A stretch of DNA of 28,268 bases from an uncultured Vampirovibrionales bacterium (GCA_964643815.1 CAZXUP010000002.1:1-28268), one strand, 5' to 3'; positions 21,614 to 28,268 are shown, counted from the stretch's first letter. Notes: generated by a model from the letters alone, not told the origin. Program-made: numbers and translations.

Positions 21614-22391
21614 CTACTCTTCCGCCAGGCGTGACAACTCCAAATCAATCCGCATCTCCCGCGCACCGGGAAATCGTGATTCCACAATAAACTTCAGGCG
21701 GGCATCACTATCGGCAGTATCTCCCCCTTTCTCTGCTTGAGTGTGCGATGGCAACGGGTGTTCAGTCAGAAACCGCCGCGCATAGTCTTCCAGATTTTGC
21801 GCGTCCAGATGAGCATATGGACTTACACGACCATTATGCTGCTGCATCTGCGACAGGAACGCTAACTGGCGTATAAAACGCCAATAAATAGGTAGAAGCT
21901 TTGCTATAATCATCCGCCGCGTTTTCCGCCTCAAAAAAACAGACCCGCATACCTTGGTGAGCAGCATCAGTCACGCCTCTTTCCGGGGCTGGCTGCGCCG
22001 TATTGATGGTAATCAGTTCCGGACGAATTTTCTCCCTGAATACACGTTTCGCCAACTGTATCTCGCCCTGGGTCAGATGCCGATCACCTGCAAGCAAAAA
22101 CCGTTGTGCGCACGGATTGTGGTGAGAAATATCGGGTATAAAAGGCTGGCTCGGTTTCGTCGGTACTGTCGAAACACAACCGGACATCCACCCGAGACAA
22201 ACTCCCAAAACAGCTTTTAAAAACGGAGTCGCTCCAGGCCTGCGACGGCTTTCTGGCCGGGACAATACATTTTCCGCACCGAAAAACAACCGAATGTTCG
22301 CTGATTCAGCGCGACAGACAGAAGCATAAGGAGACTGGTGATTTTGTAAAACGCGTTGCGCAGGAAGTGTTTTCATGACGGCCAGTTTCAA
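21614..22391 (-). pseudogene. Putative lipoprotein resembling 'Rhs/Vgr-related'/DUF4157-like HExxH proteins, split by a frameshift near 21870-21890; zinc motif degenerate
   Basis: ORF 21834-22391 has a lipobox-like LGWMSGC and RHLTQGEIQLAKRVF...DDYSKAS. Overlapping ORF 21614-21967 continues FIRQLAFLSQ at the position of the usual F-I-H-E-x-x-H-V-W-Q. The switch maps to the T4 run (AAAA 21875-21878 on +). Confidence 0.55.
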
Positions 22392-22505
22392 TAAACAGAG
22401 TCGAGAATTGCCTTAAACCCCGTTAACGAAAAAACATGCTAGCCAATCTCAATATTTTTCAATGCTTCTTAACAGAAGGGGGTAACTAACCCCTTACGGC
22501 ACGTA

Positions 22506-22524
22506 TGTCATGGCCGGAATGACA
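22506..22524. repeat. Possible remnant of the same REP-like family as 5075-5104
   Basis: TGTCAT-GGCCGGA-ATGACA shares the TGTCAT/AATGACA arms. A nearby hairpin AAGGGGGT-AACTA-ACCCCTT lies at 22476-22495. Confidence 0.3.
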
Positions 22525-22549
22525 GAGTCGGGTTACGTATCATTATTAG

Positions 22550-23176
22550 CTACGGGTGCGGCTTTTCAGCGCCACTCATCATGTGCTGAGCCATCATGAT
22601 ACCGGCGGTACCGACCAGGGCGCCGCCCATAAAGCTGCAAACCGCGGTGGAAGCCAGCATGGTGCCGCCCATTGCGAGCGCCGCCGGTGCGTTATCTCGT
22701 AGAATGCCGCCCATTTGCTGAACCGCCTGCCTGGCGCCCGTTCCCATATCACGCATGATTTGCATCATGGGTTGAGGGCTTTGAAGCGCGGAAGTCGCAT
22801 ATTGCATGACTGGTAGCTGCATTACTGGCGGTCGCATAGCCATATAGCCCGCGTTACCACTGTTGATGCCATTCCACATACTGCCAAACAGTCCGGCGGA
22901 AGCCTGCCCCAAACCAGTCAAGGCAGATTGGCCGAACGAAAACATATTTCCGGCAAATTGGGTCATCGGGGCCATCCAGTTGCCCCATCCCGCACTCGGA
23001 GCAGGCGCCTGTGAAAATAAAGTCATTTGAGGCTGAGCGCCATAACCATAAGAAGCTTGCACGCCATACGAGGAAGGCAGCATGTTTTGCGCAAGCGGGG
23101 TTATCGAATACGCCGCAGGCTGTTGCATCATCGTGTATTGGGGTCTGTACGCAAAAACACTATTCAGCATCATCAT
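22550..23176 (-). CDS. Hypothetical low-complexity Met/Gln/Gly/Ser/Ala-rich protein (~208 aa) with a hydrophobic Gly-rich C-terminus
   Basis: ORF track gives 22550-23224. AGAGGA Shine-Dalgarno precedes ATG ATG ATG at 23176, suggesting this start. Long open frame with strongly biased composition. Confidence 0.7.
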   Translation of the reverse strand: MMMLNSVFAYRPQYTMMQQPAAYSITPLAQNMLPSSYGVQASYGYGAQPQMTLFSQAPAPSAGWGNWMAPMTQFAGNMFSFGQSALTGLGQASAGLFGSMWNGINSGNAGYMAMRPPVMQLPVMQYATSALQSPQPMMQIMRDMGTGARQAVQQMGGILRDNAPAALAMGGTMLASTAVCSFMGGALVGTAGIMMAQHMMSGAEKPHP

Positions 23177-23347
23177 GCAATTCCTCTGCTCTATTGCTTG
23201 CCTAAAGGCAGACCCTTTGAACACATCACAGGGTAATCAGCCTATTTAATATCATTCTGATATATAAAATAAGGCTTCCAGAAGTCATAAATTGCCTATA
23301 ATATTACAAATACGTTACATTAATTCCAATCCAGCAAGGACGTAAGC

Positions 23348-23902
23348 TCAGTATTGCAAGCCTCTTTGGCGAATTCCCCGGGCAAGACCCGGAATCATTT
23401 TGCTTTTAAACGTCTGAATCATATCGATTTCCTCACTGGACAAGCCTCCCGGATGAGATGAAGGCATCTTTCTCACCCTGGGAAACGGTTTACTGCTGAC
23501 AACCCCATGAAGTCGCCGTCGGTTGGCCTCCGCCTGGCAAACAGGGATTTTATAAGCAAAGGCATCCGCCGCAACATGAAAATCCTCCAGCACAATCGCC
23601 AGCCGTTCAGCCCGTTCTTCCAGTCCGGTTGTTTCACACAGCTTTTTAGCGACCCGGATGGCCAGATTCAAGCGAACCCAATAGGCAACCCCCGGATGCC
23701 GCAAGCCTTCCATCATCGCCAGCCGCACATGATGCCCCGAGAAGGCTGGCTGGCTCCCCTCATTTCCCCGGGGAGCCAGGCGGTAAATTTTGAGAAACGA
23801 GCAACGGCTATCGGCATCCATCGCTTCCAGGATTGCCAGAAAGCGTTGCGCTCGTCTGTTTTTACCCGCCTGGCTTGTCATCCCCTTCCTCACTCTCTTC
23901 AT
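23348..23902 (-). CDS. Hypothetical protein, probably co-transcribed with the flavodoxin
   Basis: 184-codon ORF starting 6 nt after the flavodoxin stop (TAA TGAAGG ATG). No recognisable motif. Confidence 0.55.
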   Translation of the reverse strand: MKRVRKGMTSQAGKNRRAQRFLAILEAMDADSRCSFLKIYRLAPRGNEGSQPAFSGHHVRLAMMEGLRHPGVAYWVRLNLAIRVAKKLCETTGLEERAERLAIVLEDFHVAADAFAYKIPVCQAEANRRRLHGVVSSKPFPRVRKMPSSHPGGLSSEEIDMIQTFKSKMIPGLARGIRQRGLQY

Positions 23903-23908
23903 CCTTCA

Positions 23909-24373
23909 TTAAGCGCTAATGGGCTGTTGCAGACCCAGTGCATTGATAACCCCCTGCAGCCACTGATCGGAAGCCGCGTCATACTCCCAATCGCATTCCT
24001 GCATCGGAAAAACACGCTTTGCGCCCTGGCTTTCCAACGCTTCGTCAAAGTCCTTGCCGCACTTGCAAAAGGCCGGGTACGACGTATCGCCCAATGCACA
24101 GACACTAAAAGAGACGCCGCTGAGATCGACTTTCTGGGTTTGCAACTCACCCAGCAGATCGTAGGCGTTGGACGGCGGGTCCCCATCGCCCCAGGTGCTG
24201 GTGACAATCAAGACCCGGCTGTAGTTTGCCAACTGCGCCAGTTTGATATCGGCCATATCAATCGACTGAGCCTGAAAGCCCTGCGCCTTCAGTTTCACTT
24301 CAGCCATATCCGCCACACCCTGGGCATTGCCGGTTTCAGAACCCCATAGAATCGCAATCGTATCACTTGCCAT
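23909..24373 (-). CDS. Short-chain flavodoxin (MioC/CysJ-flavodoxin-domain type)
   Basis: WGSETGNAQ (FMN phosphate loop), TSTWGDGDPP, ALGDTSYPAFC. AGAGGA Shine-Dalgarno. Confidence 0.95.
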   Translation of the reverse strand: MASDTIAILWGSETGNAQGVADMAEVKLKAQGFQAQSIDMADIKLAQLANYSRVLIVTSTWGDGDPPSNAYDLLGELQTQKVDLSGVSFSVCALGDTSYPAFCKCGKDFDEALESQGAKRVFPMQECDWEYDAASDQWLQGVINALGLQQPISA

Positions 24374-24522: not shown

Positions 24523-24639
24523 AAGCTTTCTCAAAGAACATCATTTTTTCCTCTGAACACAGTAGAGCACCCTCTCTCGAATCGAACTCAACGATTCAAA
24601 TAGTTCGCTGTATGATGAATGGGAGAGGAGGATGATTTT

Positions 24640-25752
24640 GTGCAGACGATTTCCAAAACAATTCACCCCAGGGAGTACGATGACGTAAAAACCGTGGTGG
24701 AAAACGTGCAGAAGGGGAACCTGCAACACGCCAAAGCGCTGTTACAACAATTAAACGCCACCGCATCCAATCGGGATTCCGCCGCCGCCATCCAGCAGGC
24801 CTTTTTTGTAAACGCGCTTGCCAAAAGGGTTTCGGAACCTTCCGTTGAAAGCCAGAACCTCTATTTGCAAGGCGATGAGGGGCAGCAAATCAAAATGTTC
24901 AATTTCATGGCCGAAAAGTTTCCGGTTGTGAAAGCCGCACAGGAAATCGCCAACCAGGTTCTGGTTTCCCAACTCAAACAAAACCACCCCAATCAAAGCC
25001 TGACGATTTTGGACATTGGCATCGGCACCGGCCAGCAAATGATCAGTCTGCTCGAAACCATTCATCGGGAAACCGATTTTGCACGACCGATTACCATTAT
25101 TGGCATTGAACCTGCCGCAGACAGCCTGGAATTGGCCGAGAAGCGCATTAGCGGATTGAATGCGCAAGCACCGGCGCCCATCACCTTTAAAGGCATCCAC
25201 AAAACCTTTGAAGCCGTGGATGAAAACGACTGGGCCACAATCCGGCAAACCGTCGAAGAAACAGGCAGCCGGATTTACATCAACGCCTCGTTCGCCTTGC
25301 ATCATATTCAACCCGTCAGCTTGCGCGAAACATTGTTCTCCCGTCTTAAAAGCTTTAATCCGCTGGCGTTTACGCTCATCGAACCCTATGCGGATTATAT
25401 CAACCCGGATTTGCAAACCCGCTTCAACAATGCCTGGCACCATTACGGATTAACCTTTAAGGCCATTGATTCGATTGATGCGCCGACGGAAGATAAAAAT
25501 GCCGTCAAGAGAATTTTCTTTGGCCGGGAAATCCAGGATGTGCTGGCCCACGATCAGCTTCGGGTTGAGCAGTTTGAAACCGCCGAGATGTGGCTTGAAA
25601 AACTGCAAAAAGCCGGTTTTACCCCTATCGATCTGAACGCCGGAACAACCACCCAAAACGCGTATCCGCTCATCAGCATCAGCCAACGCTCCCATTATCT
25701 GGGCCTGGATGTTGAAGGCTATCCGATTGTGGCGGTGCTGTCGGTTCAGTAG
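24640..25752 (+). CDS. Bacterial GRAS-domain protein (Rossmann-fold SAM methyltransferase-like); GTG start at 24640 preferred over ATG at 24619
   Basis: P-x-x-K-x-A-x-x-x-ANQ (PVVKAAQEIANQ), VHIID-equivalent LTILDIGIGTGQQ, ITIIGIE, INASFALHHI, PFYRE-like PLAFTLIEPYAD...RFNNAWHHYGLTFKAID, SAW-like RVEQFETAEMWLEKLQKAGF. GAGGAGG Shine-Dalgarno lies ~7 nt before the GTG. Confidence 0.88.
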   Translation: MQTISKTIHPREYDDVKTVVENVQKGNLQHAKALLQQLNATASNRDSAAAIQQAFFVNALAKRVSEPSVESQNLYLQGDEGQQIKMFNFMAEKFPVVKAAQEIANQVLVSQLKQNHPNQSLTILDIGIGTGQQMISLLETIHRETDFARPITIIGIEPAADSLELAEKRISGLNAQAPAPITFKGIHKTFEAVDENDWATIRQTVEETGSRIYINASFALHHIQPVSLRETLFSRLKSFNPLAFTLIEPYADYINPDLQTRFNNAWHHYGLTFKAIDSIDAPTEDKNAVKRIFFGREIQDVLAHDQLRVEQFETAEMWLEKLQKAGFTPIDLNAGTTTQNAYPLISISQRSHYLGLDVEGYPIVAVLSVQ

Positions 25753-27264
25753 TCAGAAAGGCATATTTGCGCAGGCCCGTTTCCAATCCGCGCGATAGGC
25801 TGCGGGCAGTTTGCCAAACCATCGCAAAAACGCGCCCGGTGCAATCAATTCGTAGACGGCATCCAGCGGCTTAACCTCTGTCACACTCACACGCTTTTGC
25901 ACATGCCATGGCCGAAGCGCGTTGGGATGCTCCAACCCGGCAATGGCCAGCAGTTCGTAAAACTCCTGCGTGGTAATGGCATGATAGTGATAGGCTTTTT
26001 GGGCGGTTCCATCAATATCCAGCAGATTGGCATAATGGCTGTCCTGCGTCGCAATGCCTTTCAGGCAGGTTCCTTTATAGCATTCCAGTTGCTGATCGCA
26101 TCCGATTGACAGCAACATTCCCCGCGCCGTCGAACACACATCCGCGCCTCTGGCCAGCTTGGAGATCATGTCTTTTTCCGTAAACACACGACCGGACACG
26201 ATAATCTTGATGGCATCCCGCAAGTTGCAACCCACCAATGCGTTGTGCACAAAGACAATCGCGTCATTGAGCGGCGTGCCGGTAAAACCCGAAGCCCCTT
26301 TAGAGGCCGCCGCGGTTCCCGCCTCCATGCCGTCAATGGTAATAAAGTCCATCACAATGCCTGTTTTGAGCATGGCCTTGCAAATGGCCAGAAAATAATG
26401 ACGATGGCTGATTCCCAGTTTAATGCCGATGGGCTTGCCGTCACTCCGTTCGCGTAGCTCCCGAATAAAATCCAGCAATTCGATGGGCGTGGCAAAACAC
26501 GTGTGTCGGTCTTTCAACACGGCCTCATCCGCGTCTTGAATCCCCATCATATTGGCAATGGCAGGCAGCATGCCCTTAGCAGGCAAAATCTTACAAGGTT
26601 CTACCCCCTGGGAAAGCTTCACTTCGATCATTTTGACGTTTGGGATACGCACCTTCTTTTGAAACGCAACGGGATCGAAATCGCCGTTCTCGTCCCGACA
26701 ACCAAAATAACCGGTTCCCAACTGCCAAACCACATCACCCGCCCGGTTGGATTCCGGGTAACGTCCATCGACCAAATCCTCCAAAAAAGCACCAAAGTTG
26801 AAAGAGGGGTCTCCCATATCCACGTCCGTACCAAAATGATAGGTGCTGATGCCCGCCTCCCCCGTGTTCTGGAAAAAACCTCCCAGAAACGCGGCTTTGT
26901 TCAGCGCCAGAATCGCGTTTCTGGACAAGGGGCCAAAGCTGAGGGCCGAACAGTTTAAAACCGAAGCATTGTACGGTTGCTTACAATCCGGCCCGCCGAT
27001 ACGAACCTTGGGCAAATCTTTGGGCAGGGGCTTTTTAAAGTAGGCCGGTAACAGAGATTCGTACCCAACCGCCTCCACATCCGCTTCCGAACCAAACACC
27101 TCGGGCAACCGAAGACCGGATGCCCGCTCCCCGATCAGCCGGGCCGTGCTTTCCGGAACAGGCCCCTTCCTGCTCGTCTTGATTGGCGGAACACTATAAA
27201 AGCCGCCAGGAATCAAACTACCCAGCGTGGAGACACCTATGATCTTATTCCGCACATCTGTCAC
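25753..27264 (-). CDS. Stand-alone FMN-binding glutamate-synthase-family (Glu_synthase TIM barrel, Fe-S) protein
   Basis: LNCSALSFG, NTGEAG, VWQLGTGYFGCR, MIEVKLSQG, KPIGIKL, DFITIDGMEAGT, three-Cys cluster GCDQQLECYKGTCLKGIATQD. No glutamine amidotransferase domain. Confidence 0.88.
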   Translation of the reverse strand: MTDVRNKIIGVSTLGSLIPGGFYSVPPIKTSRKGPVPESTARLIGERASGLRLPEVFGSEADVEAVGYESLLPAYFKKPLPKDLPKVRIGGPDCKQPYNASVLNCSALSFGPLSRNAILALNKAAFLGGFFQNTGEAGISTYHFGTDVDMGDPSFNFGAFLEDLVDGRYPESNRAGDVVWQLGTGYFGCRDENGDFDPVAFQKKVRIPNVKMIEVKLSQGVEPCKILPAKGMLPAIANMMGIQDADEAVLKDRHTCFATPIELLDFIRELRERSDGKPIGIKLGISHRHYFLAICKAMLKTGIVMDFITIDGMEAGTAAASKGASGFTGTPLNDAIVFVHNALVGCNLRDAIKIIVSGRVFTEKDMISKLARGADVCSTARGMLLSIGCDQQLECYKGTCLKGIATQDSHYANLLDIDGTAQKAYHYHAITTQEFYELLAIAGLEHPNALRPWHVQKRVSVTEVKPLDAVYELIAPGAFLRWFGKLPAAYRADWKRACANMPF

Positions 27265-27320: not shown

Positions 27321-27340
27321 AATAGGACTTTAGTCCTATT
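27321..27340. promoter_or_regulatory. Perfect 8-4-8 inverted repeat between the kinase and the FMN enzyme genes (operator or terminator)
   Basis: AATAGGAC-TTTA-GTCCTATT, adjacent to a T run on the + strand, 57 nt upstream of the glutamate-synthase-like start codon. Confidence 0.5.
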
Positions 27341-27342
27341 TT

Positions 27343-28268
27343 TTATATAGACAATTCGAACTCCGGCTTGAAGGGAACTTGCCGTACCGTACTCCAATCC
27401 AGCGGGATCGAAATGGTAAATATGCTTCCTGCGCCAGGAGTAGACTGGATTGAGAGCACCCCGTTGTGAAGTTCGATGATCTTCTTGGCCAGAGAAAGCC
27501 CCAGGCCTGTTCCTTTCATATAGTTCGAGTGCTCTTGCCGACCTTGTTCAAAAGGCTCCAGTATCCTGTCCAGGTCCTCCTCGGGAATCCCAATCCCCTC
27601 ATCCATCACGGCAAAGCAGTACTGTGCGCCTTTGGGATAGCAATGCAGCGTAATCAGGCTGCCCTCGGATGAAAACTTGTGCGCATTGGACAACAGGTTA
27701 CACAATGCCTGTTTCAGGCGTAGAAAGTCTCCCCGAAAGCTTCTGGGGCTATCCGGATCGATAATGACTTGCAAGGTTTGCTTTCTTTGACACAGCAACG
27801 GCTCTACCAGGGCAACCGCCTGCTCGGACAACTCGCTAATCGGAACCATGTCAAAGACCAGCTTGAATTTCCCGGCCTCTATCTTGGAAACATCCAGCAA
27901 TTCATCAATAATTTGCAACAAGTGCCGCCCGCTGGCATGAATGAGCGAAAAATACTCTCTCAGCTTGTCGTCCAAAGGCCCCAGCATGCCATCCAACGCA
28001 ATATTGGAGCCGGTAATAATCGTGTGCAATGGCGTTCTCAATTCATGCGACATGCTGGTCAGAAAATTGCTCTTTTTGCGATTGGCCGTTTCCGCCATAT
28101 TTTTGGCCGCCCGCAAGTCCTCTTCCATCTTCTTCCGCTCGGTAATATCCCGAATCAACCCCAACACCCCCTGGATATTGCCCCCCACGTCTTTATACGT
28201 GGACTTGACCGCCAGATACGTTCTTTGCCGGCCATCCACCGTCGTCAACGTGTCCTCGACCGAACTGG
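27343..28268 (-). CDS. PAS/PAC-containing sensor histidine kinase, 3' part only (start lies beyond the right edge)
   Basis: PAC end GVLGLIRDITERKKME, H-box MSHELRTPL, LDVSKIEAG, N-box NLLSNAHKF, G1 DEGIGIP, G2 GTGLGLSL. The frame stays open to 28268 (SSVEDTLTTVDG..). Confidence 0.95.
   Translation of the reverse strand, partial: SSVEDTLTTVDGRQRTYLAVKSTYKDVGGNIQGVLGLIRDITERKKMEEDLRAAKNMAETANRKKSNFLTSMSHELRTPLHTIITGSNIALDGMLGPLDDKLREYFSLIHASGRHLLQIIDELLDVSKIEAGKFKLVFDMVPISELSEQAVALVEPLLCQRKQTLQVIIDPDSPRSFRGDFLRLKQALCNLLSNAHKFSSEGSLITLHCYPKGAQYCFAVMDEGIGIPEEDLDRILEPFEQGRQEHSNYMKGTGLGLSLAKKIIELHNGVLSIQSTPGAGSIFTISIPLDWSTVRQVPFKPEFELSI

Follow-up and report, generated by a model that had tools for sequence, protein, structure and literature searches.

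The window, by which we mean the whole stretch of 28,268 nucleotides analysed, carries on its minus strand a gene for a soluble protein of 503 residues related to the FMN/[3Fe-4S] barrel of glutamate synthases (GltS). This ORF (25753–27264) begins with a GTG codon and had been located by the first-pass annotation, which gave no strand. The sole domain recognised by Pfam in the GltS-like protein is Glu_synthase (PF01645), spanning residues 103–444 with E 4.7e-54 and 184.4 bits against a cut-off of 20.4. The NCBIfam model of the glutamate synthase large subunit, NF008730, gave 55.9 bits against a cut-off of 1047. In accordance with the first-pass annotation, the protein contains neither an amidotransferase domain nor an N-terminal transmembrane segment, PF01645 being the only match and the hydropathy low. 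The central and GXGXG domains of GltB and Fd-GltS are likewise absent, and its 503 residues compare with about 1500 in those enzymes.

The GltS-like gene faces a gene for a bacterial GRAS-family S-adenosylmethionine (SAM) methyltransferase of 377 residues (24619–25752, plus strand). The two genes are convergent and their stop codons, TAG and TGA, abut with zero intergenic bases (25750–25755). The GRAS assignment rests on PF03514 (137.3 bits, cut-off 27, E 8e-40). A predicted SAM motif, ILDIGIGTGQQ with IIGIEP, was identified in its sequence, and residues D132, G134 and G136 are invariant across 36 diverse homologs. The nearest solved structures are the GRAS domains of plant DELLA, SCR and SCL3. 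Divergent from the GRAS gene and 245 nt away from it lies a gene for a short-chain flavodoxin of 154 residues (23909–24373, minus strand), recognised by PF00258 (E 6e-31) and by NCBIfam flavodoxin, MioC and CysJ-FMN-domain models. This flavodoxin, a candidate electron donor, was found in the window alone among the loci inspected.

On the other side, 78 nt upstream of the GltS-like gene, is the C-terminal part of a response-regulator/PAS histidine kinase, comprising the end of a PAS domain, HisKA and HATPase by Pfam (27343–28268, minus strand). The final 8 nt of the window (28261–28268) are identical to the first 8 nt of contig C131 from the same genome (L165:1-3138), and the kinase runs in frame across this join, where its PAS domain is split. 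Beyond the kinase come, on C131, genes for a GerE-type response regulator, for DUF3291 and for an LaPhzM-like aromatic O-methyltransferase, and loci L059 and L061 have this combination by their GRAS/GltS-like pair too. The O-methyltransferases of these two loci and of the window's genome are nearest to phenazine and other aromatic O-methyltransferases (6c5b with E 4e-83, CalO6, MmcR, PhzM). The 78 nt separating the kinase's stop codon from the start of the GltS-like gene contain a perfect palindrome with an 8-bp stem, AATAGGACT TT AGTCCTATT (27321–27340), possibly a terminator or an operator. Overall, our scan for promoters and terminators gave no excess above shuffled expectation.

Most of the window (1–21613) is devoted to polysaccharide biosynthesis and export, with Bac_transf, SIS, NTP_transferase-HAD, GHMP kinase, WecG, Wzz, Wzy_C, Poly_export, Polysacc_synt and GT2 genes, two Acyl_transf_3 genes and a GH16 glucanase. 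Four ORFs of 117–224 residues between the acyltransferase and the flavodoxin (21614–23902) had no Pfam or NCBIfam match.

Cofactor motifs and loop 4

The AF2 model of the GltS-like protein, built on an alignment of its clade, has a mean pLDDT of 86.4. The seven top-ranking structures in a Foldseek search were glutamate synthases, including 1ofd (a 2-oxoglutarate complex), 1ea0 and 7mfm, and these were followed by FMN-dependent alpha-hydroxy-acid oxidases. By sequence and fold together, the best matches are Synechocystis Fd-GltS (1OFD/1LLW), Azospirillum alpha-GltS (1EA0) and Bacillus subtilis GltA (7MFM). At about 20% identity, the GltS-like protein shares with these enzymes the (beta/alpha)8 FMN barrel, the C-x5-C-x4-C triad and the EIK-x-x-QG start of loop 4. 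C389, C395 and C400 pair with Cys1102, Cys1108 and Cys1113 of 1ea0; the segment carrying this [3Fe-4S] ligand triad (residues 388–408, 26041–26103, minus strand) aligns with GCIMVRQCHSNTC of that chain and the cysteines are invariant in 40 clade members. As this fold and these cofactors are already known, the protein does not represent a new kind of system.

The substrate-facing part of the barrel differs from that of glutamate synthases. We aligned the GltS-like protein and a profile of 40 clade members with every solved GltS chain (7mfm, 1ea0/2vdc, 6s6s, 1llw), and sequence and profile alignments agreed. Where the solved enzymes read K-x-A-QGAKPGEGGQLP, the start of loop 4 in the GltS-like protein (residues 215–229, 26578–26620, minus strand) is rewritten as KLSQGVEPCKILP, so that KLSQGVEPCK--ILP faces K(M/V)AQGAKPGEGGQLP. 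Two residues of GEGG are missing, and the lysine of the AKP motif, residue 972 of chain 1llw, is replaced by Glu222. Just downstream, the first arginine of MLRRS, residue 992 of the same chain, is replaced by Met240 (26545–26547, minus strand). Two further glycine motifs carry alanine in place of glycine: NTGEGG reads NTGEAG at residues 133–138, and GGTGA reads AGTAA within DGMEAGTAA at residues 311–319. The lowest confidence in the model falls on residues 221–250 and 311–330, which are the loops bearing the changed motifs (pLDDT 58–76 for the substrate loops).

The retained cysteines and FMN-barrel motifs, the rewritten loop with glutamate in the place of the AKP lysine, and the NTGEAG and DGMEAGTA variants had all been described in the first-pass annotation and are confirmed by these alignments. 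The pocket has changed more than that description suggests, for it has also lost the loop's second basic residue. Lys972 and Arg992 are presumably the residues that contact 2-oxoglutarate in the Fd-GltS and Azospirillum structures; the alignment places basic residues at both positions, and we found no statement naming the 2-oxoglutarate contact residues of GltS in the literature searched.

The clade with the rewritten loop

Relatives were taken as the nearest 120 clusters in a collection of 5.8 billion proteins. The 56 nearest (P0002–P0057, where P0002 is the protein of the window) all carry QG[VLIMAT][EQA]P together with the two-residue deletion, at 44–76% overall identity across the clade. 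Where the source gives a name, the organisms are Coleofasciculaceae, Vampirovibrio or Melainabacteria, that is, Cyanobacteriota including Vampirovibrio-like bacteria. From P0058 on (about 45% identical), every protein among the 120 clusters is canonical, with the QGAKPGHGGILP loop (QGAKPGHGG) and the arginine. Glu222 is retained in 96% of the 51 full-length clade members aligned; in the set of 40 members K216, S218, Q219 and G220 are invariant, and E222 and P223 reach at least 90%. As judged from these alignments, the rewritten loop defines the clade, beyond what chance would give, and its near invariance indicates purifying selection on the new pocket.

The pocket was then compared between 51 clade members on one side and 61 canonical stand-alone proteins plus two true GltB FMN domains on the other. 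Twelve positions are fixed in both canonical groups and fixed otherwise in the clade: M108L, G137A, A221V, K222E, the two-residue deletion, R240M, S250L, G315A, G318A, G363E, A392Q and N398G (canonical to clade).

The canonical stand-alone proteins belong to the nearest family, the YerD-like, membrane-anchored "FMN-binding glutamate synthase family protein", which is 44–49% identical to the GltS-like protein and likewise single-domain. Its nearest members (P0058–P0061) have in common with the GltS-like protein an insertion at about residues 145–175. Unlike the clade, this family possesses an N-terminal transmembrane hairpin, an RRNFP motif, the QGAKPGHGG loop and the arginine, and at the one locus checked it has no GRAS neighbour. 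The columns of the RRNFP..GH motif, which follows the hairpin, are gaps in the clade, and the GltS-like protein carries neither the QGAKPGHGGILP loop nor the arginine. The N-terminal maximum of Kyte–Doolittle hydropathy over 19 residues reaches 1.6 in 60 of 61 canonical proteins and in none of 52 clade members, whose values are 1.28 or less. QGAKPGHGG and the arginine are present in all 61 membrane-anchored stand-alone sequences (100%). Since this nearest paralogous family has no amidotransferase domain and keeps both basic residues, the loop change is not explained by lost coupling to a glutaminase.

Both types can occur in one genome. The only other PF01645 gene in the genome of the window (contig C117, L017:775-2553) encodes a canonical protein of 592 residues of the membrane-anchored type; with these two genes, the PF01645 search found no large GltB in this genome, which is estimated to be 94% complete. 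GCA_041697335.1 also holds a rewritten (P0005) and a canonical (P0059) protein. Among 401 sampled genomes of the phylum, the rewritten type occurs in one and GRAS in two; both are thus rare, and the numbers are too sparse for co-occurrence statistics. A scan of contigs with the single protein as query, based on query-specific peptide patterns, returned canonical-loop relatives from other phyla only, and these supplied canonical sequences.

Association with GRAS methyltransferases

Ten loci with clade members were inspected, namely the window and nine further ones. A GRAS gene adjoins the rewritten-type gene in nine of the ten, the window counted, which answers positively a check proposed in the first-pass annotation, whether GRAS-adjacent homologs share the QGVEP-type loop. 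Seven of the nine adjacent pairs are convergent, abutting or overlapping except for a 49-nt gap in L001; in the relatives L002, L004, L060 and L163, the 3' ends overlap by 4–53 nt. Given this arrangement, the transcripts of the two genes must overlap, and antisense interference or shared termination at the junction is possible. In the two most divergent members the GRAS gene is co-directional with a 21-nt gap, and a GerE-type response regulator, DUF3291 and the same type of O-methyltransferase lie alongside. The remaining locus, L162, has DUF3291 and no GRAS gene within 6 kb, and no GRAS neighbour was found for the canonical paralog P0059, from the same genome as L001. In addition, 31 of the 56 clade clusters, among them that of the window, have a longest contig of exactly the length recorded for a GRAS cluster, and about 26 further pairs lie on a common contig.

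Other genes recur around the pair. A PAS histidine kinase and response regulator flank it in nine of the ten loci (eight of the nine outside the window), and DUF3291 is adjacent or close in seven of the ten, as well as being present on C131. Glyoxalase/VOC, Flavodoxin_2/FMN_red, OYE and SnoaL_2 genes occur in some clade loci. A complex predicted between the GltS-like and GRAS proteins scored 0.01 and was given no weight for or against an interaction. In the literature we searched, which did not include the 2012 article by Zhang, Iyer & Aravind about GRAS proteins of bacteria, we met no description of the re-specified pocket, of the lost anchor or of the nearly obligate partnership with GRAS.

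Within the length range searched, 285 clusters of the 5.8 billion proteins match GRAS. A tree of 91 bacterial GRAS proteins, calculated by a quick method, splits according to gene context, and the GltS-linked GRAS proteins form one clade with an SH-aLRT support of 100. In a large clade, a HisC-like aminotransferase gene follows GRAS in at least 17 loci. In a cyanobacterial clade, GRAS is followed after a 47-nt gap by a ScyB-like tryptophan dehydrogenase (NF035922, 527 bits; L076:7001-9278 and L077:7001-9279). The latter score lies just below the 600-bit equivalog cut-off, and the gene is outside any scytonemin cluster. Three unrelated types of enzyme of 2-oxo acid/amino acid metabolism (HisC-like, ScyB-like and GltS-like) therefore occupy the same place beside GRAS.

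The ScyB-type enzyme, from a sister GRAS clade, interconverts an amino acid and a 2-oxo acid; it differs from the GltS-like protein in its unrelated ELFV dehydrogenase fold, its dependence on NAD(P) and its co-directional orientation with GRAS. In beta-methyl amino acid cassettes, keto-acid C-methyltransferases are paired with aminotransferases. Such cassettes (MrsA/MrsB, MarI/MarG, MppJ, GlmT, SgvM) resemble GRAS and its partner in combining a SAM methyltransferase with a 2-oxo acid/amino acid enzyme; they differ in that their partner depends on PLP, in place of the FMN/Fe-S enzyme seen here, and in that GRAS belongs to another methyltransferase family. MarI, MppJ, SgvM, MrsA and GlmT are alpha-keto acid SAM C-methyltransferases (PMC10502145).

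Other bacterial GRAS genes have neighbours of a different kind. In a deep clade (L105, L109, L113 and about 20 other metagenome loci), a SpoIIE-type PP2C phosphatase gene always lies 500–600 nt downstream. At other GRAS loci (L122, L124, L125, L138 and L093) a weak SpoIIAA-like gene is found upstream; these neighbours suggest a context of partner-switching signalling. At L081:5384-8715 (genome G026), two TerB-domain genes come after GRAS, as does a cyclodipeptide-synthase-like ORF whose match is weak (E 1e-4, below cut-off), and TerB-GRAS fusions are represented by P0186, P0191 and P0217. The SpoIIE (23 loci), TerB and phosphotriesterase (PTE) contexts rule out that every bacterial GRAS protein has an amination partner.

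Proposed reaction and rival explanations

The core reading of the first-pass annotation, that the gene probably encodes a different enzyme from a glutamate synthase using 2-oxoglutarate, gains support from the clade-defining loop, the K972E and R992M replacements and the unchanged pocket of the anchor-bearing family. We consider it likely that the GltS-like protein is something other than a glutamate synthase and has a functional tie to GRAS. Because the GRAS neighbour is nearly constant, the protein is probably a hitherto uncharacterised reductase whose substrate is another small molecule, one that is methylated. By analogy, a C=N or amino-acid-type reaction in partnership with the GRAS methyltransferase is somewhat favoured, and its most likely form is a flavodoxin- or ferredoxin-driven C=N reductase or deaminase acting on a GRAS-methylated 2-oxo or amino acid. 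For any named substrate the probability is much lower. With the two basic residues of loop 4 now Glu and Met and the loop two residues shorter, the substrate should be neither 2-oxoglutarate nor 2-iminoglutarate. The associations with tryptophan dehydrogenase, HisC-like and phenolic O-methyltransferase genes suggest that it is perhaps aromatic. Gene context leans towards a 2-oxo or amino acid of non-acidic and perhaps aromatic character more than towards the cationic or amine substrate guessed at in the first-pass annotation. The LaPhzM-like O-methyltransferase and DUF3291 of the extended cluster would suit a quinone or heteroaromatic compound no less than an amino acid.

In GltS, 2-oxoglutarate lies before the FMN, ammonia converts it to 2-iminoglutarate, and FMNH2 delivers a hydride with electrons arriving via the [3Fe-4S] cluster (PMC8097209). 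We infer the electron donor, reaction type and substrate class of the GltS-like enzyme with this half-reaction as the analogy. The enzyme would descend from the synthase (FMN) domain of a glutamate synthase, with its substrate pocket re-specified. A low-potential carrier, either flavodoxin as the obvious candidate or ferredoxin, would pass electrons to the [3Fe-4S] cluster, from which they would reduce FMN, and a C=N bond, or with lower probability C=O, would accept a hydride from FMNH2; in reverse, the enzyme would oxidise an amine to an imine. Its substrate would be an imine or oxo acid devoid of the acidic group for which the missing Lys/Arg pair would be the binding partner, and methylation by the GRAS enzyme would fall on the oxo acid or amine of the same small molecule. 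The common molecule would most likely be a 2-oxo acid/amino acid pair that is non-acidic and may be aromatic, and the reductase would fill the role of the tryptophan-dehydrogenase-like or HisC-like partners beside other GRAS methyltransferases. The PAS histidine kinase and GerE-type regulator may control this module, or the module may feed them. A wider proposal is that the reductase and GRAS make or remodel a methylated signal derived from an aromatic amino acid, which the PAS kinase and GerE regulator sense or control, and that bacterial GRAS proteins generally act on 2-oxo/amino acid metabolites with interchangeable amination enzymes; this we regard as speculative and, on balance, doubtful.

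Other explanations have to be weighed against a re-specified reductase. The protein might still be an ammonia-dependent glutamate synthase whose loop 4 drifted once coupling to a glutaminase was unneeded. Loop 4 is the element joining the two active sites of GltS, and the genome of the window, with its two PF01645 genes, appears to lack a large GltB. We consider this very improbable: the membrane-anchored family, equally devoid of a glutaminase, keeps QGAKPGHGG and the arginine in 61 of 61 sequences, the near invariance of the new loop speaks for re-specification and not for drift, and a canonical paralog is encoded in the same genome. A role as a redox or metabolite sensor, in which the FMN/Fe-S barrel would report to the adjacent PAS kinase, would account for the kinase and response regulator by the pair in nine of ten loci and would agree with the general occurrence of bacterial GRAS genes among signalling genes (LytTR regulators, SpoIIE phosphatases). 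The retention of catalytic-type motifs and of a tightly conserved pocket, together with the intact SAM-binding motif of the GRAS partner, makes such a role improbable, and we know of no sensor role for this fold.

Alternatively, the enzyme could reduce or oxidise an aromatic, quinone-imine or N-heterocyclic compound and belong, with two methyltransferases, ABM-like DUF3291 and VOC or flavin reductases, to a set devoted to tailoring or detoxification. The frequency of DUF3291 (seven of ten loci, and C131), the kinship of the O-methyltransferases of the window's genome, L059 and L061 with phenazine/aromatic enzymes, and the glyoxalase/VOC, Flavodoxin_2/FMN_red, OYE and SnoaL_2 genes at some loci are consistent with this. 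Such extra genes differ from locus to locus, whereas GRAS is the only enzyme partner in nearly all of them and its sister clades accompany an amino-acid dehydrogenase or aminotransferase, and we therefore rate this explanation as unlikely. It is compatible with a GRAS-partnered reductase of 2-oxo or amino acids provided that the substrate derives from an aromatic amino acid.

Stand-alone proteins with a glutamate synthase domain are very common, with at least 7874 matches among 8000 scored candidates, and to our knowledge none has an assigned reaction. A re-specified pocket together with a fixed methyltransferase partner thus makes the clade described here a tractable entry to a first function. 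The "glutamate synthase" label attached to its genes by annotation pipelines is probably wrong for reconstructions of nitrogen metabolism in Vampirovibrio-like bacteria and cyanobacteria. Plant GRAS regulators (DELLA, SCR, SHR, NSP) are thought to derive from the bacterial branch of their family, which is small, and the identity of the molecule methylated by a bacterial member would inform a long-standing debate, that over small-ligand binding by plant GRAS domains. If the proposed methylated signal molecule is real, a function would be assigned for the first time to a stand-alone GltS-domain protein, and the bacterial ancestors of plant GRAS regulators would for the first time be placed in a biochemical context.
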